The notes under the pieces were generated by a model. It was given only the letters and a program-made list of their open reading frames with translations, did no database searches and was not told the DNA's origin. DNA of 24,000 nt, taken from Phormidium sp. (GTDB taxonomy: Bacteria; Cyanobacteriota; Cyanobacteriia; Cyanobacteriales; Aerosakkonemataceae). The stretch is taken from NCBI GenBank assembly GCA_051013385.1, contig CP143274.1, positions 27,157 to 51,156 of the forward strand, read 5' to 3'. The position numbers and the translations under genes are program-made. This document shows, piece by piece, positions 10,210 through 24,000 of this stretch. Position 1 is the first letter of the stretch; each line of letters opens with the position of its first letter.

Positions 10210-11494
10210 GTTATTCTCTCAAACTCGTCTGCGATTAGCGACTTCCTATGCCGTTGTGATGGGCTTTATCTTAGCTCTATGCGGTTTGGGTGTATATGAG
10301 GCGATTGTTCACGCTCACTGGCAAACTTTAGACCGAGAACTGGAAACGGTTGCAGGAACTTTACATGACAGTATTGAAAACAAACTCAAGCTACCCGGAC
10401 GTTTGGAACCGATAGAAGAGAAACTGTTTTCTGTCTCTCCCTCGAAACGCCACACTTTAGGAGCAATTTACCAAGGCAACTATTATGTGCGGTTGTTAGA
10501 TCGTTCCGAACGAATTGTTGCGGAAGCTGGTTCCGTACCCCTTGGTTTACCTGTCACATCACCTAAAGTGACTTGGCAGAATCTCAAGGATAGCGAAGGG
10601 AATCGTTATCATCAAATTTCTCTATCCCTGCATACCCAGGATAATCTTTCTTGGGGATATATGCAGATGGGGCGGAGTCTCAAAGACCTCGATGACTACC
10701 TCAAAACTGTTAAATTGGTATTGTTTTTTGGATTGCCGATCGCGATGATTTTGGTGGCTGGTTCTAGTTGGTGGCTGGCAGGATTGGCTATGCAACCAAT
10801 TTACCAATCTTATCGCCAGATTCAACAGTTTACAGCTGATGCTGCTCACGAGTTACGAACGCCTTTAGCTGCTACACAAGCGACCGTTGAATCAGCATTG
10901 GAAATGCCTCAGATGGATGAACTTGAGGTACGTGATATCTTAAGAACTATAGAGCGTCAAAATCGCAGGCTAATTCAGCTGGTTGCCGATTTGTTGTTGC
11001 TGGCACGCCTGGAGCGACAAGCTGTACCGATGCGACTGAAAGCTTGTTGCTTGAATGATTTGGTTGGCGATTTAATCGAGGAATTTGAAGCTTTGGCGAT
11101 CGCTAATGGTTTAACTCTGGCTGCTGATATTCGGGGGAACCACCCAGTAGAGGTAGTGGGTGACGAAGAGCAACTGTATCGCTTGGTTTCTAATTTGATG
11201 GTGAATGCCATCCAGTATACTCCTGCCGGAGGGAAGGTAATAGTGGTTTTATACCGCAGCGATCGCTATGCTGCGATCGAAGTTCAAGATACTGGTATTG
11301 GGATTGCACCCACCGAACAAAAGCGGATTTTCGATCGCTTTTATCGAGTTAATACCGATCGTTCTCGCAGTACAGGTGGGTCAGGTTTAGGATTAGCAAT
11401 TGCTCAAGCTATTGTTCAGGCACATGGAGGCGATCTACAAGTACAAAGCGAATTGAGCAAAGGTAGTACTTTTACGATTAGTCTACTAGTTTGA
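10196..11494 (+). CDS. Sensor histidine kinase, two TM helices with a periplasmic loop (CopS/CusS-like)
   Basis: The likely start ATG 10196 (MNQNKLFSQTRLRLATSY...) overlaps the regulator's stop by 14 nt. H-box FTADAAHELRTPLA, N-box LVSNLMVNAIQYT, G1 VQDTGIGI, G2 GGSGLGLAIAQ. The TM helices are VVMGFILALCGLGVY and LVLFFGLPIAMILVAGSSWWLAGLA. Confidence 0.9.
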   Translation: MNQNKLFSQTRLRLATSYAVVMGFILALCGLGVYEAIVHAHWQTLDRELETVAGTLHDSIENKLKLPGRLEPIEEKLFSVSPSKRHTLGAIYQGNYYVRLLDRSERIVAEAGSVPLGLPVTSPKVTWQNLKDSEGNRYHQISLSLHTQDNLSWGYMQMGRSLKDLDDYLKTVKLVLFFGLPIAMILVAGSSWWLAGLAMQPIYQSYRQIQQFTADAAHELRTPLAATQATVESALEMPQMDELEVRDILRTIERQNRRLIQLVADLLLLARLERQAVPMRLKACCLNDLVGDLIEEFEALAIANGLTLAADIRGNHPVEVVGDEEQLYRLVSNLMVNAIQYTPAGGKVIVVLYRSDRYAAIEVQDTGIGIAPTEQKRIFDRFYRVNTDRSRSTGGSGLGLAIAQAIVQAHGGDLQVQSELSKGSTFTISLLV

Positions 11495-11772
11495 ATGAAT
11501 TTGCGATTTTGTATCTCTATCAGAGCATTACTACAATGCTTGCTCGATCGCTCCTGGTAACTAGCAAATTGAGTTAATTACACAAAAGACTGGGCTACAA
11601 GTCTTCTCTAGTAAAAAATATTCAAAAAATTAATGTGTAATTAATCCTGTCCAATTACTTATTTTGTTAGATTCAATTGGCCTCTCAATATATAGCGTTT
11701 CTCTGACTCATGAGGTACATATTGTTGGCTAACCATAGCGTAATATAAAACCTTGTTTATTATCCATCTACC

Positions 11773-13698
11773 CTAAAATTTTTCGCTCTTCATATTGGCA
11801 AAATGGTCTTGTAATAGTTTGTGGAAGAATTGATAGCGACCCCCAATTTTTATGATAAATAAGCGTTCTTCTGCATAATGGAGAAAGCGAGCGTAGTTCC
11901 AAGGTATGTAACCATTGCGCCAAAGCAAGAATCGCAACAAAAAATGTTGAAGACAAGCCATTCCACCTGTTAATAGTGCTATCGTTGGTACTACTGTCGC
12001 TCCAGTAATTAGTGTGGAAAAAGCTATTTTATCTGTCAAAATAATTGTTAATCCGAATCCCAAACAACTTATTAGTATAAATATTAATGTGATGCGTGTT
12101 GAATAAAAAATATCTTGATTGGGAGCTTTTCTTTGTTTGATTTCTAGCCGCTCACTCGTGAAAGCTAAATTACCTAACAAAACTAAACTAAATATGCATC
12201 CGAAAATTAATCTGGGAATTAATTGCGTATTTACTCCAAATGCCAAACTTAAAATTAATACACTCACTCCGTAACCTAAAAATAATTTATAGAGCTTTAC
12301 TTGAGGAAATTTAAAAGTCTCAATTGGTGTGATTTGCTTATACAAGTATTTAAAAGGAAATGATGCTACTATAGAGCCGATTACAAGTCCAATAATATCC
12401 GAAAATGACAACTGTTGTGTAATGGTAGGCAAGACGGTGGTTAAAGAAAAGATTAATATAATAATTATTAAAAGAATAATATTATAAATTCTTAAATCAG
12501 TTGGCTTTAACCAATTTGGTTGCATCTTTTCAATTAAAAATTCAGTTTGAGACTCTCTTTGTAACTGTTGCGCTAACCAAATAAGCCAAAGTCTGGTTTG
12601 ATGAGAGCTAGGAAACTTTTGTTTAATGTATGCTTTACTATCAATGTCCCGGCTCAACATTCGTCCTACGTAGCTATCAAGCAAATATTGAATTCGGTCT
12701 TCTACAGACGTTAGCTTCTGCCATTGTTCAAAAGATATTTCTTCATAGGCTAGAATGGAAACATTAAGCAGCAAAGGATTTCTAACTAACGGTAATAGAT
12801 TGGAGTTGTTGCTAATACTTTGCCAAAAGTAGGTATGGCTAATATTAGCTAAGTACTCCTGAAGTTGAGAGTTAGTTAAGGATTTTAAGCTGATGGAGTT
12901 GCTGAGTTCAAGGCGAGTATCATAATTTTCATATTCACCTAAGCGGCTACAAACAACTAGATGTTTAGGACGGTATTCTCCCTTCATTAGCTCGTTAATT
13001 GCCTGCACGCAAAGTTCTTGACGAGTTGATTGTAGTTCATCCAAACCATCCAATAGTGGTATAATTCGTTGATTCTTTAGCCATTCTCCGATCAACCCCT
13101 TTAAGGGTTTAAACTGTAATTCGATTGTAGTTACCAACCAATCAGCTATAGTTTGGCGATCGTCCCTCCAAGATGAAAGGTTGCACACCCAAGGAATTGG
13201 ATAATTAGGATCGGCTTCAGCACGACTAATCAGAGTTTCAGCTAGTTCTAACAGAGTAGTAGTCTTTCCCGCTCCTGGCGCACCCAGGATTAACAATCTA
13301 CCTGCAATTTCTTCTAAGTCAAAGATTTCAATAACGTTAGTATTCGATGGTAAAAGAAAGGGAGGTTTTTCGCCGATCTTAACTTCAGTATTCCAAAGCT
13401 GCTTTACCTGCTGAGGTTGTAACTCCTTAACCAAGTTTATCGGCTCAGTATAAAGTAGAGATTTCTTTAGCCGATCGCTAACCATTTGCTTCATTTCCTC
13501 TAAGAGGAATTGTTCTTTACGCGATCGAACTAAATTGTTTCCTTTTGCAAACTGCTGACCCAGAAAAATATTATTATTATAGATATCGCCGCCTATTTGA
13601 TTAGCATAAACATTTGTTGCATCTACAATACCGCCCGCAAATTGAGAACCTCTTAGGTCATGATTAGAAACTTTTTTAGGATCTGGCGCTTCAGACAT
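11773..13698 (-). CDS. NACHT-family P-loop NTPase with an N-terminal G/N/Q-rich motif and a C-terminal polytopic membrane domain
   Basis: Walker A is LILGAPGAGKTTTLLELA and Walker B is RIIPLLDGLDEL. The C-terminal ~230 aa contain at least 6 hydrophobic helices, including NIILLIIIILIFSLTTVL, IIGLVIGSIVASF, LGYGVSVLILSLAFGV, LIFGCIFSLVLLGNLAF, LIFILISCLGFGLTIIL and TGATVVPTIALLTGGMA. I prefer ATG 13698 (MSEAPDPKKVSNHDLRGSQFAGGIVDA...). The listed GTG 13773 would overlap the upstream gene. Confidence 0.8.
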   Translation of the reverse strand: MSEAPDPKKVSNHDLRGSQFAGGIVDATNVYANQIGGDIYNNNIFLGQQFAKGNNLVRSRKEQFLLEEMKQMVSDRLKKSLLYTEPINLVKELQPQQVKQLWNTEVKIGEKPPFLLPSNTNVIEIFDLEEIAGRLLILGAPGAGKTTTLLELAETLISRAEADPNYPIPWVCNLSSWRDDRQTIADWLVTTIELQFKPLKGLIGEWLKNQRIIPLLDGLDELQSTRQELCVQAINELMKGEYRPKHLVVCSRLGEYENYDTRLELSNSISLKSLTNSQLQEYLANISHTYFWQSISNNSNLLPLVRNPLLLNVSILAYEEISFEQWQKLTSVEDRIQYLLDSYVGRMLSRDIDSKAYIKQKFPSSHQTRLWLIWLAQQLQRESQTEFLIEKMQPNWLKPTDLRIYNIILLIIIILIFSLTTVLPTITQQLSFSDIIGLVIGSIVASFPFKYLYKQITPIETFKFPQVKLYKLFLGYGVSVLILSLAFGVNTQLIPRLIFGCIFSLVLLGNLAFTSERLEIKQRKAPNQDIFYSTRITLIFILISCLGFGLTIILTDKIAFSTLITGATVVPTIALLTGGMACLQHFLLRFLLWRNGYIPWNYARFLHYAEERLFIIKIGGRYQFFHKLLQDHFANMKSEKF

Positions 13699-13744
13699 AC
13701 ATTTAGCAAAAGATTGTAGATAGGTTAATCTAATCTGAAAATCT

Positions 13745-15513
13745 CTAGGGAGCGGGGTTGTCGATGTTACCACCTATGTGTTGGGAATGAACTATCTCGG
13801 CATCTACAATTCCACCAGCTATTTGAGAGTGTTGTAGGTCGTAATTAGAGGATTTAACCACAGCTTTTGCCTCTACAGTGATGGGCTTATTAGCCAATAT
13901 CTTAACAATTTCCGTGAGATTTGCATTTTGCTGACGATGAGTAGCTATCTGTTCATCCTTAGCTTCTAACTGGTATCTATATTTTTCTTCTAAGGCTTTT
14001 AATTGCAGTTCGTATTCTTGCTTGAGGTATTTCTCTATTTCTGCCTTATTTGCATTAAAAGGAACATTAACACGAATGATAAAAGCACCATCATTCTTGT
14101 TTTCAAGAGCTTGAATAGATAGCTCCTCACTACCACACTTAACTTGCAGCTTTTGAAATGAATTAAGGAATGCCTGCCAATCAATGCCGTTACGGAAAAC
14201 TAGATCGACTGTTGCTACTGCTTTTTGGAATAATTTAGTAAACTCTCCTGAAGCAAAGTTTCCACTACTAGGGCGGCGTTCTTGTTCTCTTTCTTGAAGA
14301 TAAACATAGTCACAAATCACTCCATTCAACTGGGTGGTACTATTAATATTCCAATCTTGAATGCAGGCTCCAGTTAATGTTGCTTGCCGAAAGGTACTAC
14401 CCATTACTAGAGCCGTAGATAAATTGGCCTGAGTGAGATTAGCATTACACAAGTTGCATTCTCTAAGATCGGCTTCTGCCAGATTAGCTTTAGCTAGATT
14501 AGTGTTTGCCAATATTGCGTTACTCAAAGATGCTTTCCGAAGGTCTGCTTTACTGAAGTTTGCTCCACTGAGGTCTGCCTCCTCTAGTAAAGTCGCCACA
14601 AGTAAGGATTCAACTAACTGTGCATCTCTGAGATCGGCTTTTGTAAGATACGCCGCTGTGAGGTTAGCTTGATTTAAAGAAGCCAATATAAGGGATGATT
14701 CCCACATTTGTGCGCTAACGAGAATTGCTTCTGTAAGATTAGCTCGATCGAGGTTGCACTTGTTGAGAATTGCCCCCTTCAGGTTGGCTTTGTACAAAAC
14801 GGCATTGCTGAGATTAGCTTGGGTGAGGTTCGTTATAGTAAGGAATGCGCCACTGAGATCTGCTCCTGTTAAGTCTGCTCCTGTTAAGTCTGTCCTTGTC
14901 AAGTTTGCTTGGCGAAAGTTTACTCCACTGAGATTAGCTTCTTGAAGATTAACCAGACAGAGATTTGCTCCACAAAAATTGGCTTCCGTAAAGCGTGCGC
15001 CGCGAAGTTCAGCAATGCTGAGGTTAGCTCCCTGAAAATTTGCTCTGCTAAGGTTAGCTCGATTCAGGATGGCCATTCCTAACTCTGCTCCCCTGAGATC
15101 TGCCTCACTCAAATTAGCTTTCTTGAAGTTAGCATTTCCCATATCTGCTTTCTGGAGATATGCTCCACTGAGATTAGCTTTGCTAAAATCTGCCTCCGTG
15201 AGTTTGGCTTCAGTGAAGTTAGTTTCTTTTAAGTAAGCATTTTGGAAGTTAGTTCTATCAAGGTCTGCTCGACGGAAGTTGGCTCTGCTAAGATTTGCCC
15301 CATTAAACTTTGCCCATTTGACAATAGCCCTGCTAAAATCGATTCCACAGAGGTCTGTATTGCTAATATCAGCACTTTTAAAGTTAGTTCCATCCAAGGA
15401 AGCGCCATTAAGTTTTATCCTACTAAGCTTGGCACTCCGAAAGTCAGCGCCCCTAAGATTAGCATTCGAGAGGTCAGCACCATTTAGGGTGACTATGCCA
15501 AGGTCTGTTTGGC
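13745..15513 (-). CDS. Pentapeptide-repeat protein, main (3') portion; the 5' end is separated by an antisense group II intron
   Basis: There are about 65 consecutive A(D/N)LxX pentads (ANLSRANFRRADLDRTNFQN...). A ~190-aa non-repeat domain follows (CIQDWNINSTTQLNGVICDYVYLQ...). The C-terminus is SSNYDLQHSQIAGGIVDAEIVHSQHIGGNIDNPAP*. Upstream of the listed TTG 15397 the frame stays open and pentapeptide-like (QTDLGIVTLNGADLSNANLRGADFRSAKLSRIKLNGASL) as far as the intron boundary at 15513. Confidence 0.85.
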
Positions 15514-16061
15514 GTGCGATTCGTTGTAGCCGAATCAGTGGAAATAATCCACGAAATAACGCTACTCACAACCGTTTAGAGGTTGTGAAACTCTCAAGAT
15601 GATGAGGGTGCAAGCCCCTCCCATCAGGTAAGGATGTGACTCCCAATCTAGCCACAGCGACCAGACTCGGAATTCTGGAGACTGAAGCTGGCAGTAGGGC
15701 GCAATCAGAGCTTGACCGAAAGCACACTGGCGCTAGGGGAGTTCCCAAGGTGAAACAGAGCCTAAAAAAGCAGCTTAAGGCCGAAACCGGACGGAAAAGA
15801 ATAACCCCCCGGATTTCACTAGAGTAAAAACCCGCTAGCTTATGCTAAAGAGACTAGCCTTACCAAGGGTTTCTAGTAGCTGAAGTGGCTACGCCTAAAG
15901 GAACAAGACAATCACTTGAGGGAACGAAGAAAAACGAATTTAGGGTCTTGGGAAAGGTCGAACCCCAGGTAGGCGAGACGAGACGCAGAAACCCCTAGAT
16001 TCGGGTAGGATTCAGCGTAATTGCTGAAAGGCAATCAGAGTAAACACTACAGGAGTAGAGC

Positions 16062-17564
16062 ATGATTGGGCGCAGTCTTAGTGCTAGCGAATTTTGGAAG
16101 AAATTACCTTGGAAGAAGTTTCGACGTAATCTATTCCGCCTGCAAGTGAGGGTTTACAAAGCTATTAGAGCCAATGACCTGCGTAAAGCTAAGTCATTAA
16201 TGAAGCTAATCCTGAAGGCCAGAGCAGCAAGATTACTGGCAATCCGTCAAGTAACACAACTCAATGCAGGGAAGAAAACCCCCGGTATCGACGGCAAAGC
16301 GTCCCTGACACATCAGGAACGCTTAGAGTTGAGTACACAACTCAAGGGTAATGTTAACACCTGGAGACACCAAGGGCTGAGAGAAATTCCCATACCTAAG
16401 AAAGATGGGTCAACCCGGATACTGAAAGTCCCCACTATAGGCGATAGAGCTTGGCAATGCCTAGTGAAATACGCCATAGAACCTGCACATGAGGCTACAT
16501 TCCATGAAAGAAGCTATGGGTTTAGACCAAGTAGAGCAGCACACGACGCTCAGAAATTCTTGTTTCTAAATCTAAGCTCCAAAGTAAACGGAAACATCAA
16601 GAGAGTCATCGAACTAGATATCGAGAAATGCTTTGACCGAATAAGTCACACCGCCATAATGGACAAACTCATAGCCCCATCGGGCATCCGCAACGGTATT
16701 TTCCGGTGCCTAAAATCAGGAGTCAACCCAGGGTTCCCAGAACAGGGAACGCCCCAAGGCGGAGTAGTTAGCCCACTGCTAGCGAACATTGCATTAAACG
16801 GTATCGAAAAGATACACCAATCAATAAGATACGCCGACGATATGGTATTCATACTGAAACCAAAAGATGACGCTCAAAAGATACTTGAGGAAATCAGTCA
16901 GTTCCTTGCTCAAAGAGGTATGAAGATTAGTGAAAAGAAGACAAAAATAACCGCAGCGACAGATGGATTTGACTTTCTAGGATGGCACTTCAAAGTGCAA
17001 AAGAACGGAAAGTTTCGGAGTCAGCCTTCAACGGAAAACTTCAAAAAGTTCCGAGGTAAAGTCAAGAAAATCGTCAATAACTCGAATTATGGGGCAAAGG
17101 TAAAAGCCGAAAAGCTTGCACCTATTGTCAGAGGTTGGAGAAACTACCACCAGTTCTGTAAGTTGGATGGCAACAGATTCAGTTTATCGTCACTCCGCGA
17201 AAGAACTTGGCGAGTATTCAACAAAGAAAAGAAGCTTAACCGATACCAGGTAAAAGAACTGGTCAACAAAGCATTCCCGGCTGTCCCCTACCACGAAAAC
17301 AAATTCATAAATGTGAAAGGGGGTAAGTCACCTTTCGATGGCGATATCCTGTACTGGGCAAAGCGTAACAGCAATTTATACGACGGTACAACCTCAAAGA
17401 TGCTCAAAAAGCAGAACCATACTTGTGGACATTGTGGGCTTCTCTTTATCGGAGAAGAAAAGGTGCATCTACACCACATCGACGGTAATCATAGCAACGG
17501 GAAGGCTAACAATCTGATGGTTGTCCACGAAAGCTGTCACGACTACATCCACATGAGCAATTAA
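16062..17564 (+). CDS. Group II intron reverse transcriptase/maturase with a C-terminal HNH endonuclease domain
   Basis: RT blocks are TPGIDGKASL, IPIPKKDGSTRILKVPTIGDRAWQ, SYGFRPSRAAHDA, IELDIEKCFDRISH, GTPQGGVVSPLLANIAL and the YADD motif (IRYADDMVFI). The maturase X region has GWRNYH. The HNH region is CGHCG...HLHHIDGNHSNGKANNLMVVHESCHDYIH. Confidence 0.95.
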   Translation: MIGRSLSASEFWKKLPWKKFRRNLFRLQVRVYKAIRANDLRKAKSLMKLILKARAARLLAIRQVTQLNAGKKTPGIDGKASLTHQERLELSTQLKGNVNTWRHQGLREIPIPKKDGSTRILKVPTIGDRAWQCLVKYAIEPAHEATFHERSYGFRPSRAAHDAQKFLFLNLSSKVNGNIKRVIELDIEKCFDRISHTAIMDKLIAPSGIRNGIFRCLKSGVNPGFPEQGTPQGGVVSPLLANIALNGIEKIHQSIRYADDMVFILKPKDDAQKILEEISQFLAQRGMKISEKKTKITAATDGFDFLGWHFKVQKNGKFRSQPSTENFKKFRGKVKKIVNNSNYGAKVKAEKLAPIVRGWRNYHQFCKLDGNRFSLSSLRERTWRVFNKEKKLNRYQVKELVNKAFPAVPYHENKFINVKGGKSPFDGDILYWAKRNSNLYDGTTSKMLKKQNHTCGHCGLLFIGEEKVHLHHIDGNHSNGKANNLMVVHESCHDYIHMSN

Positions 17565-17573
17565 GATTGTCGG

Positions 17574-17607
17574 GAGCCGGGTGCGGTGAAAGTCGCACGC
17601 CCGGAGC
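17574..17607 (+). ncRNA. Group II intron domain V-like hairpin
   Basis: GAGCCGGGUGCGGUGAAAGUCGCACGCCCGGAGC has the AGC triad, a GAAA tetraloop and a 2-nt AC bulge in the canonical places. In my hand fold, two basal pairs (A2/G33 and G3/A32) are non-Watson-Crick. Confidence 0.7.
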
Positions 17608-17650
17608 TAAATGAGAGGGGCGAGGAATAATACCCTCCCTCGACTCAACC

Positions 17651-17789
17651 TAAAGTCAATGCCGCGTAGGTTTAGATTGCTAAAGTCTGCTCCGCAAAGT
17701 TCGGGTTTAATTTCAGGATTGTTTAACCGCCACTCATTCCAAACCTCTATCCCCTGCTTGAGCAGAGCGAGATGTTTCTCATTGATCAT
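17651..17789 (-). pseudogene. 5' segment (46 codons plus 1 nt) of the pentapeptide-repeat gene, cut off by the intron
   Basis: ATG 17789 gives MINEKHLALLKQGIEVWNEWRLNNPEIKPELCGADFSNLNLRGIDF, a typical N-terminus of cyanobacterial pentapeptide proteins. The rest of the listed ORF (RLSRGRVLFLAPLI) is read-through into antisense intron sequence. Confidence 0.75.
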
Positions 17790-17835
17790 CTTATTGCACC
17801 AAAACTTAAGTTTGTTTCGTCTACAAATAAGATGA

Positions 17836-18010
17836 TTACTTGCCTTCTTTCCAACCTTCTAAACTTGCTATAAGGATATTAACTAAAGGATGGTTAATCA
17901 ACTCTTTAAAAGCTTCAATACTCCCTGCTTTTAGCGCTCTAACTACTCGCGCCTTGAGAGATGGATTACTCTCAATTTGCTCGATCGCTTCCGTTACAAC
18001 TGTCTGTTTC
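17836..18010 (-). pseudogene. 3' segment of the IS-split gene (C-terminal helical tail)
   Basis: The minus-strand translation from 18003 is TVVTEAIEQIESNPSLKARVVRALKAGSIEAFKELINHPLVNILIASLEGWKEGK*, with the stop at 17836-17838. It continues ...NTQEEKQT from 19341 in frame once the IS and one target-duplication copy are removed. Confidence 0.75.
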
Positions 18011-19340
18011 TTCAGGGGGCGACAACGAAGCTAGAGAGGTTGCTGGATCAGGGTTATAGCTCTCACACCTCGTTGATAAAATGATTTTTTATTGGGCGTA
18101 TAATTAAGCATTTCTTCTACCCATAACTGGCAGGAGTAAAAAGCGATTAGCCAATTTTCTCCATAAAGACCAATCCAAAAGTTGCTATGTCTCCTTCTAG
18201 TTCTACCGGGTTCTGTGAGACGACAGACATATTTTTGTTGCCCTTGTAGCTTAGTTCTTTTGCCTTGTAACCAAGCGGAAGTCATCGCCAAAGCAATTAA
18301 TAATATCAGGCTAATTAATCTATTAGGTGATGCTTGAGAAGCTTCCAGATTATAACCACCTGTTTTACAATCTTTAAACATAGCTTCGATGCCATAACGT
18401 TGACTATAAACACGAGTTGCACTTTTTAAATCCGGGAAATTAGTCAATAAATACCAAGGTTCTGATTCTTGTTTACTTTTATATCTTCTTTTCCAGGAAA
18501 CGGCTAAATTAAACCGATTAAAACCCTTCTTTTGCGTGAAACTAATATGCTCGTAGAATAAATGAATACCTGGTTGAATCGGGATACTGCTTAAAGGTTG
18601 GAATTTCTGTCTATAGGAGCGAAAAGTTGTGGTGCATTTTTGTCGAAGTACGAAGCCAAGATGCTGACGGTGCAGCCATTGCGCCAGTTCTATACTCTGA
18701 AACTCTCTATCCCCAATAATCACTAATTTATATTTACTTAATAATCGGATTACTGGACGTAATACTTGTTTTTGTTCAATTAAATTACAGGCTCCTTTTT
18801 TATCTAACAACATCCAAAATATGGGAAAAGCTCTTTTTTGATGAATCGCACTTACCATTAAAACATTATTTTTTTTCCATTGGGTTCTATCTAAAGCGAT
18901 AATTAGTTGACTCCCTGGTTTGATTTGACGAGATATCACTTCTTTAATAATCGGAAACCACAGCGCCAATACGCTTAATTTACTTAGGGCTAAAAATCGT
19001 TGAATATGACGACGGCGACTATTTTCTAGGATTGGTAATGGCAGGGTTGCTGCCAGTCTTTCTATCCTTACCTGCTTTTGAGATTGCAACAACCATACCA
19101 GCATCTTCAAGGTGATTAACTGTGCTGGCTTCAGATATCTTTCCAGATATTTTTGATAAAATGATGGCATCATTTTGAATGGGTCTTGTGAAATTAACTA
19201 GACCTTTCCTTATTTATCACAATTCAGGGCTTTTTTCTCTACGAGGAGCTTGTTGTCAATAAGCAGGGAATTTCTCGACCAGGTTTGTGCCGCAAAACCC
19301 TTTCCCTATATTGGTTTGGGGGCGCTTGTCGCCCCCTGAA
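18011..19340 (-). mobile_element. IS4-family insertion sequence, 1330 bp, complete
   Basis: Perfect 15-bp terminal inverted repeats: TTCAGGGGGCGACAA (18011-18025) and TTGTCGCCCCCTGAA (19326-19340). They are flanked by the 9-bp direct duplication GTCTGTTTC (18002-18010 and 19341-19349). A single transposase ORF lies inside. Confidence 0.9.
18031..19173 (-). CDS. IS4-family DDE transposase
   Basis: 380 aa. Candidate DDE residues lie in LIIALDRTQW, LVIIGDREF and YGIEAMFKDCK. YSQRYGIEAMFKDCK fits the IS4 Y-(2)-R-(3)-E-(6)-K signature. Confidence 0.85.
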   Translation of the reverse strand: MMPSFYQKYLERYLKPAQLITLKMLVWLLQSQKQVRIERLAATLPLPILENSRRRHIQRFLALSKLSVLALWFPIIKEVISRQIKPGSQLIIALDRTQWKKNNVLMVSAIHQKRAFPIFWMLLDKKGACNLIEQKQVLRPVIRLLSKYKLVIIGDREFQSIELAQWLHRQHLGFVLRQKCTTTFRSYRQKFQPLSSIPIQPGIHLFYEHISFTQKKGFNRFNLAVSWKRRYKSKQESEPWYLLTNFPDLKSATRVYSQRYGIEAMFKDCKTGGYNLEASQASPNRLISLILLIALAMTSAWLQGKRTKLQGQQKYVCRLTEPGRTRRRHSNFWIGLYGENWLIAFYSCQLWVEEMLNYTPNKKSFYQRGVRAITLIQQPL

Positions 19341-20212
19341 GTCTGTTTCTCTTCCTGGGTATTGGTCGGATACGTTTGCTCTAGTTGTTGCAATAGCTGC
19401 TGAATTTCTGCTGCGGCTTCAACTAAGTTTTGTCTTTGTTCGGGTGCGTAGTTGTTTATGTTACCGCCTATCTGCTGCGCGTGGACTGTCTCAGCATCTA
19501 CAATCCCTCCAGCAATTTGGGCATTTTGTAGATTAAAAGTTGAGGACTTTTTTGATTCTTGTGACATCATAATCTCCTTTTCGTTTATAATTCTAGCTAT
19601 TTTATCTGCTTTGACTTCTCCTTGGTTAACCCCAACCCCTATAGAAGATTTACTTTGATCGATGTTTGTTTCACTCACGGTTGCTCCCATATTGTTACCA
19701 TAATTATTACCGTAAATATGAATAGTTACCTTAGCATTTTCATCTTCCCCTAAACCTATTTGTAATTGAGCTAGATAGTTTTCAATATAATAAATAAATG
19801 GCTTAACCACATTATGATTAAATTTATTGACTTGCTCCTTTCGGTTTCCATTAAAAAAGTTTTCTACAGAGGCAGCTAACTCCCAATAACCGAGTTCGCT
19901 TTGGTAAAATTTTTGTAATCCATACTTAAGAAGTTGATATATAAAGCTTATTTCATCTGCTGCTGATTCATCAGGAATTTTAAATCCTGGCTTTAATGAA
20001 TTGTAAGCGCATATATATGAAATATCAAATTCTTTATTAGGGTTTTTTTGAATAAAAGAACTAATTACTAAATCGTTATCAATAAAACTAATAAACCTTT
20101 TGAGATTACTCATCCCAGTATCGGGTAATGATTGCATCAGACGGTTTCCATACATCCTAAAGTCAGATGATATTTTTCTTAATTCGTTTTTACTGATTTT
20201 TAGTTCATCCAT
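19256..20212 (-). CDS. Unknown protein carrying the shared G/N/Q motif, disrupted by the IS (native sequence only to 19341)
   Basis: A ~220-aa N-terminal domain with no motif I recognise is followed by SSTFNLQNAQIAGGIVDAETVHAQQIGGNINNYAPEQRQNLVEAAAEIQQLLQQLEQTYPTNTQEEKQT. The last 27 codons (SGGDKRPQ...FPAY*) are read from the IS end. Confidence 0.7.
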   Translation of the reverse strand: MDELKISKNELRKISSDFRMYGNRLMQSLPDTGMSNLKRFISFIDNDLVISSFIQKNPNKEFDISYICAYNSLKPGFKIPDESAADEISFIYQLLKYGLQKFYQSELGYWELAASVENFFNGNRKEQVNKFNHNVVKPFIYYIENYLAQLQIGLGEDENAKVTIHIYGNNYGNNMGATVSETNIDQSKSSIGVGVNQGEVKADKIARIINEKEIMMSQESKKSSTFNLQNAQIAGGIVDAETVHAQQIGGNINNYAPEQRQNLVEAAAEIQQLLQQLEQTYPTNTQEEKQTSGGDKRPQTNIGKGFCGTNLVEKFPAY

Positions 20213-20213
20213 A

Positions 20214-20663
20214 TTACCTTACTCCACAACAGGGACAATAAATACCTATTACCTTGTTCAAGAACCTAGTCTTAGCAGTTATTTGGCAGCAATTAAGATT
20301 AACTGTCTCTAGTTCTTCCTGTTCAAATAAAATTTTCTGTACTTCCATTTTTAGGGGTTTATCAGCCTTAAACTTTACATTTTTACTTCCTTTGAAGTTT
20401 CTCTCCAATTTTTTAACCCATTCGTTAATCATTGACTTGGCATAATTATTAGCAACAGTGTGAGCTTGTTCGATAACCTCATCTCTTAAAAAATGGCTAT
20501 GTTGATGCCGTAATCCGCAGTAAGGACAAAATATTTCAATAATATCTTCTCTTTCAAAGTCTGTTACTGTCAGTTTAAATCTATCCTCACAAAAAGGACA
20601 TTGGAGCGTAACAAACCCGTCGTTATCGCTGGGGATGGTTATTTGAAAAACTACGTCAGCCAT
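20214..20663 (-). CDS. Double zinc-ribbon-like small protein, function unknown
   Basis: 149 aa with Cys pairs CPFC...CPYC (N-terminal half) and CC...CPCC (C-terminal end). Its stop is 1 nt from the ATG of the next gene, which suggests co-translation. Confidence 0.6.
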   Translation of the reverse strand: MADVVFQITIPSDNDGFVTLQCPFCEDRFKLTVTDFEREDIIEIFCPYCGLRHQHSHFLRDEVIEQAHTVANNYAKSMINEWVKKLERNFKGSKNVKFKADKPLKMEVQKILFEQEELETVNLNCCQITAKTRFLNKVIGIYCPCCGVR

Positions 20664-20761
20664 ATTTGTTACTCCGCTTCAACTTGGCACTCGCATTATG
20701 GTTCTAGGGTAATCAGGGTGCTGAAAAAGAGCAATTTAGCAGCCTATGTACAGTAGATCTA

Positions 20762-20995
20762 TTAGTGCTTGGTATCTTTTGGCGGACAAGAATCGTTGCC
20801 GTAGCTATCTTTATCCCGGATTTTTCCATCTCTTCCGTGTATTACAACCTCCGTATGCTGGTTTTTGGCAATTTCTTTGGCCTTATCAATCGCTTCCTTT
20901 TGGGTAGCACATACTTTTGTCGCTTTAGTAGCGCCTTCTGATTTAACTTGCCATCCTTCGGGATGCGGGGTAACGTGTTGTGCTTTTTTAGCCAT
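20762..20995 (-). CDS. DUF2188-like small protein
   Basis: MAKKAQHVTPHPEGWQVKSEGATKATKVCATQKEAIDKAKEIAKNQHTEVVIHGRDGKIRDKDSYGNDSCPPKD matches the pattern I recall for DUF2188 (HV.P...GW.VK.EGa.ra......eAi..A...A......e..IHgrDG.Ir..dSYGnDp.PPkD). I prefer the ATG at 20995 over 21016. Confidence 0.6.
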   Translation of the reverse strand: MAKKAQHVTPHPEGWQVKSEGATKATKVCATQKEAIDKAKEIAKNQHTEVVIHGRDGKIRDKDSYGNDSCPPKDTKH

Positions 20996-21148
20996 AACCC
21001 TTTTGTATTGGTACATTTTGAGGCTAGCACAACGTTTTATAAGGTGTACGTTATAAAGTAGGTAAAATATTAAATATTTGTTAAAATATTAGATAAATGG
21101 GTGTATGTTACTAAACGATCGAGATCGCTACTACTAAGCGCTAGCACT

Positions 21149-21643
21149 ATGGACGGCTTTACTCGTCAGGAAACCTTGGCTCTCTGCGGAACTACATCCA
21201 GTCGTCTTGCCTACTTAGACAGGACGAAAGTCGTTGTGCCTCAAAAATACGGCAATCTTAAGAAACCAACGGTGATTTACACTTGGGAGCAAGTTTTAGA
21301 GATTCGGGCGATTAGTCATCTAAGAGAAAAAATATCTCTACAGACGGTCAGAAAAATTATTCAATTCTTAAATGATAGTGGATTTGAAGAAAGCCTTAGA
21401 GATAAGCATTTGGTTGTAGTCAATGATGAAGTCTATTGGGTAATGCCTGATTGGTCTGATATGCCCCGCGTGATGAAGGTTGCTGATAAAAAAAATAAAG
21501 AAAATGGACAATTTGTATTGATTGTTATCCCCCAGCTATCATGCCTTATTAAGGACGTTTGGAATGCTGCTAAAAAGTCTAATATTGTGGACTTTGAAAG
21601 TTTTAAACAGAGAGCTAAAGCCAAACCAACTAAAGCAGCGTAA
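21149..21643 (+). CDS. Putative MerR-like HTH protein, function unknown
   Basis: From ATG 21149, MDGFTRQETLALCGTTSSRLAYLDRTKVVVPQKYGN..KPTVIYTWEQVLEIRAISHLREKISLQTVRKIIQFL follows the MerR N-terminal HTH and wing spacing. The C-terminal half is unrecognised. It is divergent from the DUF2188-like gene across an AT-rich spacer. Confidence 0.4.
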   Translation: MDGFTRQETLALCGTTSSRLAYLDRTKVVVPQKYGNLKKPTVIYTWEQVLEIRAISHLREKISLQTVRKIIQFLNDSGFEESLRDKHLVVVNDEVYWVMPDWSDMPRVMKVADKKNKENGQFVLIVIPQLSCLIKDVWNAAKKSNIVDFESFKQRAKAKPTKAA

Positions 21644-22011: not shown

Positions 22012-23889
22012 TTAAAAGCATTTTAAGAAAGCGTCTATCTCAATTTCATTGAATGGTAAAAGCAATGTTGATTGGATAAAATCTCTAGTTTCACGCTTGA
22101 CATAACATGGCGATTGAAGGCAATCTAACAACAATTTATTAGCGTAGCAATATGCTCGTAACATTCCCCATTCTTGCTCGGTATCTAATTGCCAATCATA
22201 ATCAATATTGCGATATTTACGATTCAAGCCTTTAAGCTTATCACCCCAAGCACCACTATCATGCTTATACCAATGGTAATTTTCATCCCAATGATCGTAA
22301 ACCCCTTCTGGCAATTCTTCATCTAGGTTGATAAGTTCTTTCTGAAAATCTTGATTATCAGTCAATGCTATGGCTGAATATAACGCATCAGATAAGGTGT
22401 AAAAATTAGTATCGTCAATCGGATGCTTGTTATACATTTCATCAATTTCATAATCCTCATCTCCTTCATAAAGGCTAATAGATGTAAATTCCTCATTTTG
22501 AGGATTCTTGTTAGCAATGCGATTTAACAAAGATGCTTGAGCGCGAGCATGAGCCAAATTAAGGTCTAAAGCTAGATTTGGATCGTCAAGAGAAGCACGG
22601 AAATTTCCCATACCAAATCCTGAAGCACATCCTTCATAAAAACTTAACTGAATATGGGAATCTAAAGATTGTAATAGATCGCTCATCTCTAAAAATTCCC
22701 AAGTTGAATCGAGAGGAGAGTTTGTATTATCTAATATGTAGATACCCACAGCTAAACAAATGTAAAATGCTCTAATTGCATTAGGCTGATGAGAGCTAGA
22801 TATTTGACGAGACTTTTGACTAGCCCAAGTTAACAATTCTTGAATGGTTCTATTCTGTGCGGCGGCTAGATCGATTTGATATTTCATTGATAGCAAAAGC
22901 ACATCAGCACTTCTTAGCATCTCAGTAGTTAGCAAGAAAACTTCACGCCATTGTTTATAAAAAGCGTATTGGATTAAATTATTCAGAGCCGAATCGTTGA
23001 ATTCATTTGGATTAGCTTTTGATACAATCTCTTTGGCAGCGAAATACTCGTGAAAGGTTAAATGAGAAAATGAATAAACTTCTCTAGCTCGTTCTACTAA
23101 TAACCCATGCTGTGCCTCAATAGATTTTAATACAGCTTCGCTATCTAGCAATAAAGCTTCTGGAACTTGAGAAGATTCTGTCAAGTTCTTAATATAAGAA
23201 GCAATATATTCCTGCACATCCTGTTGTTTCCAAAAATGTTCCCCCTTCTCAAAAGTTGTTAAAGCTAAATAACTAAGTAAATCTTCTTTGCGCGGTACAG
23301 AGAGATGTTTATAAGCGTTATCACGTTCAATAATACGAGTAGCATCCCATTTCCTTAGAAGTGTATGAGTTGCCCTTTTGTATAACTCAGCACGACTATT
23401 AGGAAAGTCTCCAGCATCTTCAAATTCAATACATAACAAAGTTAACAGTAGTGGGTTATTAGCAAGTTCCTCGATTGATTTGTTCTTTTGGAGGTGTTCC
23501 ATAAACCGTTGGTCAGAATTACAGATATTATTTTTATATGAAAACCACTTACTGACAAAGGTTTGGATTTGTTCTCGATCAAAATCAGCAACTTCTACAT
23601 CTGTAAAATGCTCAAATGTATATTCCTTAGCTGCGATTCGGCAAGTCAGAATAAATTTGTTATTAGGAAACCTTTGAGAAATATCACGGATTTCTTTTAA
23701 GACGTGGCGATCGTATTCTTGCCGAACCTCATCCAATCCATCAAGCAATAATAGTATTCGTCCTAGCTCAAATAACCGAACTATTTGGTTATTGTCAATG
23801 TGGTTATTAGATAATTCCTTACCAATGTAATCGAGTAAACCTACAGCGCTTTGCGCTGTTATGAGGTACGATAAAATATCATTTTGTAG
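22012..23889 (-). pseudogene. Second NACHT-family NTPase, 5'-truncated (Walker A region missing)
   Basis: The minus frame is open from 23889: ...LLDYIGKELSNNHIDNNQIVRLFELGRILLLLDGLDEVRQEY (Walker B), then FILTCRIAAKEY and NNPLLLTLLCIEF. No GxxGxGK(S/T) lies upstream. Instead an oppositely oriented IS630-like transposase gene starts at 23899. Confidence 0.75.
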
Positions 23890-23898
23890 TCAGAGCTA

Positions 23899-24000
23899 AT
23901 GAAAGCATATTCAGTGGAGTTCCGCAAAAGAATAGTGATGGCGCATTTGGTAGAAAAAATATCAATCAGGAAAGTGGCCACCAAATTCGCTGTCAGTAAA
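23899..24000 (+). CDS. IS630/Tc1-mariner-family transposase, N-terminal HTH part (runs off the window)
   Basis: MKAYSVEFRKRIVMAHLVEKISIRKVATKFAVSK resembles the N-terminal HTH of IS630-family transposases (MKAYS.D.R.KI......G.S.R..A..F.VS). The IS end between ~23860 and 23898 could not be placed. Confidence 0.5.
   Translation, partial: MKAYSVEFRKRIVMAHLVEKISIRKVATKFAVSK

Follow-up and report, generated by a model that had tools for sequence, protein, structure and literature searches.

A group II intron that lies backwards inside a protein-coding gene raises a simple question: is it an intron of that gene, to be removed from its transcript, or is it a mobile element that has disrupted the gene by inserting into it? 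The case analyzed here comes from Phormidium sp.; the window denotes the whole 24,000-nucleotide stretch of its DNA that was examined. A sequence-only reading of this window had described a + strand group II intron within a pentapeptide-repeat gene encoded on the - strand. The evidence presented below makes it very likely that the second answer is the right one, namely that a mobile IIB intron was guided by its RNA into the antisense strand of the pentapeptide gene and disrupted it. Table 1 lists the features on which the argument is built.

Table 1. Features of the intron, its target site and the interrupted gene (window coordinates).
Feature	Position	Strand	Basis or details
Complete group II intron, IIB-type	15514-17650	+	2137 nt; clean indel relative to the G002 ortholog locus
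5' boundary, GUGCG	15514-15518	+	start common to all related copies
EBS2, AGGCC (within AAGGCCG, 15777-15783)	15778-15782	+	variable domain I segment; covaries with exon -12 to -8 in 9 copies
EBS1, GCUAAA (in a stem-loop)	15844-15849	+	covaries with exon -6 to -1 in 9 copies
EBS3, G (in UUGAA[N]UGGCU)	15885 (intron position 372)	+	pairs with exon +1
Intron-encoded protein (IEP), 500 amino acids	16062-17564	+	intact, YADD in translation; Pfam RVT_N, RVT_1, GIIM
Domain V, AGC triad, 2-nt bulge and GAAA loop	17574-17607	+	RF00029 match
Domain VI	17613-17646	+	RNAalifold, 20 copies: compensatory changes
Target 5' exon (intron strand)	15502-15513	+	IBS2 GGTCT (15502-15506), G, IBS1 TTTGGC (15508-15513)
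IBS3, T	17651	+	G-T wobble with EBS3 G
Host pentapeptide gene, first 139 nt (46 codons + 1 base)	17651-17789	-	collinear with G002 ORF 10491-12398
Host pentapeptide gene, other 1769 nt	13745-15513	-	Pfam Pentapeptide, E 3e-95, 14 stretches
Chimeric 60-amino acid ORF	17607-17789	-	46 N-terminal host residues + 14 antisense-intron codons, then stop
First in-frame start past the intron, TTG	15395-15397	-	would yield 550 amino acids, lacking 85 residues

Results

The empty site and the intron boundaries

Removal of the intron joins nucleotides 17789..17651 to 15513..13745 on the - strand and yields an ORF of 1908 nt that encodes 635 amino acids with 0 internal stops. The fit is exact to the base; removing one base more or one base fewer leaves a frame with 35-70 stops. 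Across the junction the protein reads ...NLRGIDF-S-QTDLGIV..., and the 5-residue register of the pentapeptide repeats continues through it. The sequence-only reading had claimed precisely this, that the deletion restores the frame and preserves the repeat register, and it had proposed alignment with an intron-less homolog as a check. An ortholog of the host gene is present in only 1 of 40 related genomes searched. This genome, designated G002, belongs to the same genus, and its gene is uninterrupted and encodes a protein with 94% amino acid identity. The ortholog DNA (loci L006 and L046) aligns gap-free across the junction (...GGCATTGACTTTAGCCAAACAGACC...), and segments 13205-15513 and 17650-18009 of the window meet at one single base of the G002 contig. 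The host gene and its ortholog are separated by 88 substitutions and 0 indels, with a dN/dS of 0.23.

The sequence from 15514 onward is GTGCGA. Full-length relatives of the intron, which are 81-87% identical to it, have the same ends as the window copy; 11 related copies start with GTGCGATTCG, and the base that precedes this start varies among them (C/T/G/A). Because 15513 and 17650 are both C, a single C can be assigned to either side, and the boundary is formally ambiguous by that one base. The invariant GUGCG start next to a variable -1 base, taken together with covariation between EBS3 and the first base of the 3' exon (described below), places the intron at 15514-17650.

The published consensus for group II introns is GUGYG...AY (PMC4424553). 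The window intron ends in ...CAACC, and the sequence-only reading had flagged this departure from AY in the 3' end that it proposed. The proposal was correct. ACC is the majority form, with a penultimate C in 41/59 relatives, and 15/59 end in AAC with a penultimate A. Judged from these relatives, the noncanonical ...ACC terminus is a trait of the intron family and no boundary error. A 3' boundary at 17649, which follows the Rfam alignment and would provide a canonical ...AC, was considered and rejected: removing 2136 nt breaks the host frame, the ortholog has a single C at this point, and it is the base following ACC with which EBS3 covaries. The EBS3/+1 covariation therefore fixes the 3' end at 17650, and the Rfam alignment, which ends ...AAC at 17649, is one base short. 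Both of the boundaries originally proposed are thus borne out by the restored frame and the gapless intron-less ortholog. For automated boundary calling and annotation it matters that most members of a large cyanobacterial intron family terminate in ...CC and depart from the textbook AY.

Ribozyme domains and intron-encoded protein

The element at 15514-17650 is a mobile group II intron of the chloroplast-like, cyanobacterial IIB type. RF00029, the Rfam family for group II domains V/VI, matches positions 17572-17649 with 45.2 bits (gathering score 40) and is the sole Rfam family detected in the window. The match lies on the + strand, in agreement with the orientation given by the sequence-only reading, which had suggested that the group II covariance models be run. 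The Rfam D1-D4 models, searched at a permissive threshold (E <= 1) over 15400-17750, matched 0 families. With no match from these models, the 5' half of the intron and the EBS sites were fixed through alignment and covariation with relatives; the support for domain I consists of this alignment and the covariation of the EBS sequences. An alignment of the V/VI region from 20 copies folds into the two expected hairpins with several compensatory changes. In the consensus fold of these copies, the branch A (17643) is unpaired; it precedes the 3' end by 7 nt.

The RT/maturase ORF that had been noticed inside the intron is intact and carries three Pfam domains (Table 1). The IEP scores 280 bits with TIGR04416, the NCBIfam model of group II RT/maturases, just below the equivalog cut-off of 300. 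Its best PDB match, covering residues 10-384 (E 7.9e-66), is 6me0_C, the maturase/RT of a cyanobacterial IIB intron RNP. The HNH family PF01844 is matched weakly (19.2 bits; cut-off 21.4), and a CxxC...HH...N...H...CH motif can be read in the translation. The IEP belongs to a family that is very large in filamentous cyanobacteria, with at least 6999 proteins at E <= 1e-50. Among the matches listed, the nearest relative is 87% identical and comes from Phormidium sp. LEGE 05292; a search of public assemblies for the exact IEP sequence returned no record.

In comparing domain V of the window intron with that of its relatives, we noticed one difference. Position 17606, which faces the A of the triad, is a G in the window copy only; it is U in 19/19 and in 44/44 relatives. 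As a result, domain V has tandem A-G/G-A mismatches at its base. It is possible, if somewhat doubtful, that the U-to-G change has weakened or abolished the ribozyme and that the copy is an inert relic, incapable of splicing or of further movement. The occurrence of a single intron copy in the genome would also fit such a relic. On the other side, the IEP ORF remains intact with its YADD, and most relatives tolerate a G-A mismatch at the adjacent triad position. Domain V mutagenesis has indicated that the pair at the position of 17606 tolerates some change, which likewise counts against loss of activity.

Guide sequences and target site

The sequence-only reading had left the EBS/IBS pairings unassigned. 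EBS1 and EBS2 were sought in an alignment of domain I from nine copies with known 5' flanks, in which two hypervariable segments covary with the exon. Each of these nine copies pairs with its own exon at 9-11 of 11 positions (mean 10.3). In a control in which EBS and exon sequences were cross-assigned (72 assignments), the mean was 5.0 of 11 and the maximum 9. For EBS3, the column that contains 15885 is the only one in domain I that pairs with exon +1 in 7/7 copies scored; the pairs are A-T, T-A, and G-C across further copies and G-T in the window. The base immediately 5' of EBS1 is T in five copies of the domain I alignment, regardless of their +1 base. Covariation has thus placed all three guides, and each pairs with the insertion site. 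Pairing of the +1 base with EBS3, and not with a delta position beside EBS1, together with that of EBS1 and EBS2 with IBS1 and IBS2 in the 5' exon, is the arrangement of subgroup IIB.

At the occupied site, EBS2 pairs with IBS2 at 5/5 positions (4 Watson-Crick and 1 G-T) and EBS1 with IBS1 at 6/6 (5 Watson-Crick and 1 G-T), so that 12/12 guide positions are paired once EBS3 is included, 3 of them as G-T wobbles. The pairing of every guide position indicates that the insertion was RNA-guided. Measured against the genome-wide background, in which only 50 other positions of 14.2 million (both strands) pair at all 12 with wobbles allowed, the occupied site is far from random. A perfect Watson-Crick homing site (GGCCT-N-TTTAGC-C) occurs zero times on either strand of the genome. 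The 3 wobbles among 12 pairs and the lack of any perfectly matching genomic site point to ectopic retrotransposition instead of homing into a cognate site, and we conclude that the site is probably ectopic. The wobble pairs could instead reflect drift after insertion. Poorly matched sites, taken as retrotranspositions, have been described for some Thermosynechococcus introns (PMC2882425).

The host genome contains one full copy of the intron and therefore offers no basis for inferring a homing site. The sequence-only reading had asked how many copies exist elsewhere; besides the full copy, there is a 168-nt 3' remnant at C1:659872-660039 that is 88% identical and covers domains V and VI together with the end of the IEP ORF. 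The remnant has the canonical GGUUC strand in domain V and ends ...CAACC.

Consequence for the host gene

The intron and the gene that it interrupts lie on opposite strands, as the sequence-only reading had stated: the + strand carries the intron, and the - strand carries the frame recognized by the Pfam pentapeptide profile (E 3e-95). Antisense insertion of a group II intron amounts to a non-conditional disruption, as in targetron knock-outs (PMC3898094). The further claim of that reading, that the intron is unspliceable from the host mRNA, therefore agrees with established knowledge: an intron placed backwards in a gene cannot be spliced from the message of that gene. The pentapeptide gene is very probably knocked out. 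Read-through of the antisense intron by ribosomes was considered and rejected, because a stop codon ends the host frame after 14 codons of intron sequence; the full-length protein therefore cannot be made.

These observations suggest the following model. A IIB-type intron RNP would have reverse-spliced into the noncoding DNA strand of the 635-amino acid pentapeptide-repeat gene, at a site chosen by EBS2-IBS2, EBS1-IBS1, and EBS3-IBS3 base pairing. The event would have been an ectopic retrotransposition and not homing to a cognate target. Initiated at the native start, translation is predicted to end after 46 host and 14 intron-derived residues, with loss of the full-length protein and, we infer, of gene function. 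The host gene carries no other lesion, which suggests that the insertion is recent.

The gene need not be dead if a shortened protein is made. Starting at the TTG at 15397 or at a later codon, translation of a read-through transcript, or of one initiated at a promoter inside the antisense intron, would yield a product of up to 550 amino acids that lacks the first 85 residues and retains most repeats and the C-terminal domain. The downstream frame is indeed entirely open and otherwise undamaged, and its first in-frame start lies only 39 codons beyond the junction. We nevertheless consider such a product unlikely. No recognizable ribosome-binding site can be read ahead of the TTG, and the number of promoter-like sites (10, against 7.3 +/- 2.8 in shuffled sequence) is at background level. 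Moreover, a recent insertion explains the missing decay equally well, and in this cluster the neighboring upstream gene is likewise interrupted, by an IS element.

It is extremely improbable that the intron sits in sense orientation in a genuine + strand gene overlapping the pentapeptide gene and is hence an ordinary spliceable intron: a junction-spanning + strand frame of 153 codons (92 + 61) does appear once the intron is removed, and G002 has a similar antisense ORF of 164 amino acids, but the + strand ORF has no Pfam match at E <= 1 compared with E 3e-95 for the - strand frame, the two frames share third codon positions (an arrangement that keeps antisense frames of repeat genes open by chance), and the persistence of the frame in G002 says little when the DNA is 95% identical.

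Disruption of the pentapeptide gene by an antisense intron, the preferred reading, was set beside the orientation of related copies. Among 46 distinct insertion sites of relatives with usable flanks, 12 introns are sense within an open frame, 1 is antisense, and 33 lie in no long frame; the count is based on open frames of at least 150 codons and not on annotated genes. Antisense-in-gene copies are therefore uncommon and not unique. The sole antisense case among the relatives is in a MAG labelled Candidatus Sericytochromatia and involves a frame of 204 codons.

Discussion

Relation to known group II introns

The window intron resembles the chloroplast-like IIB introns of cyanobacteria exemplified by T.el4h of Thermosynechococcus (PDB 6me0; PMC2882425), the source of the best PDB match of its IEP. 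Like introns of this type, its RNA has a GUGCG start, EBS1, EBS2, EBS3, domain V, and domain VI, and its imperfect site recalls the T. elongatus copies at poorly matched sites that are taken as retrotranspositions. Three differences are apparent. The IEP of the window intron has an HNH-like C-terminal motif (a weak match), the copy is antisense inside a protein-coding gene, and most members of its family end in ...ACC and not in AY.

The outcome for the host gene is the same as in non-conditional disruption by targetrons derived from Ll.LtrB (PMC3898094), in which the primary transcript contains the sequence complementary to the intron and is unspliceable. These targetrons are engineered, ORF-deleted IIA introns, whereas the window case is natural and involves a wild-type, ORF-containing IIB intron. 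With the ectopic retrotransposition of Ll.LtrB and RmInt1 (PMC2435150, PMC1802570), it shares an imperfect EBS match outside a conserved homing site. Our literature search turned up no account of this antisense-in-gene case; the general principle has been published (PMC3898094).

The insertion is thus a clean and ordinary mobile-element event, in which an element of known type shows known behavior. It leaves the understanding of group II introns unchanged. What it offers is a well-documented natural example of a group II intron as an insertional mutagen and not a removable intron, with an exact empty site and assigned guide pairings. Annotation of this genome should mark the pentapeptide gene as disrupted, and the boundaries given here allow the intron to be annotated correctly.

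Mobile elements around the NACHT-linked cluster

The gene resides on a replicon of 153 kb, probably a plasmid to judge from the structure of the assembly (3 contigs). A search of PLSDB with the replicon returned distant intron matches only. Just upstream of the host gene, the window contains two further segments that the collinear G002 contig lacks. The first, 18010-19340, is an IS element of the IS4 family with a DDE_Tnp_1 transposase; the second, 19755-21566, contains small ORFs with weak Pfam hints (DUF7836, MerR-like). For both segments, the flanks share an 8-nt overlap that resembles a target duplication. The region is accumulating mobile elements.

It is tempting to speculate that mobile elements have independently knocked out the same NACHT-linked cluster several times, with the intron as one such case, an idea that we regard as quite improbable. 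If it were true, the repeated knock-outs would mean that the cluster imposes a cost and that inactivating it is favored and not simply tolerated on a plasmid. In the window the cluster has been hit by the intron, by the IS4-family element, and by the third insert; in the sister species a different element has hit the NACHT gene. That gene adjoins the pentapeptide gene, and the Gly/Asn/Gln-rich C-terminus of the pentapeptide protein (13745-13852) bears a resemblance to the N-terminal end of the overlapping NACHT protein. The insert of G002 in its NACHT gene (L046 12937-15343) is ~2.4 kb long and contains three - strand ORFs, and the equivalent position in the window is ~13205-13208. Part of this insert is 89% identical to window positions 23839-23998.
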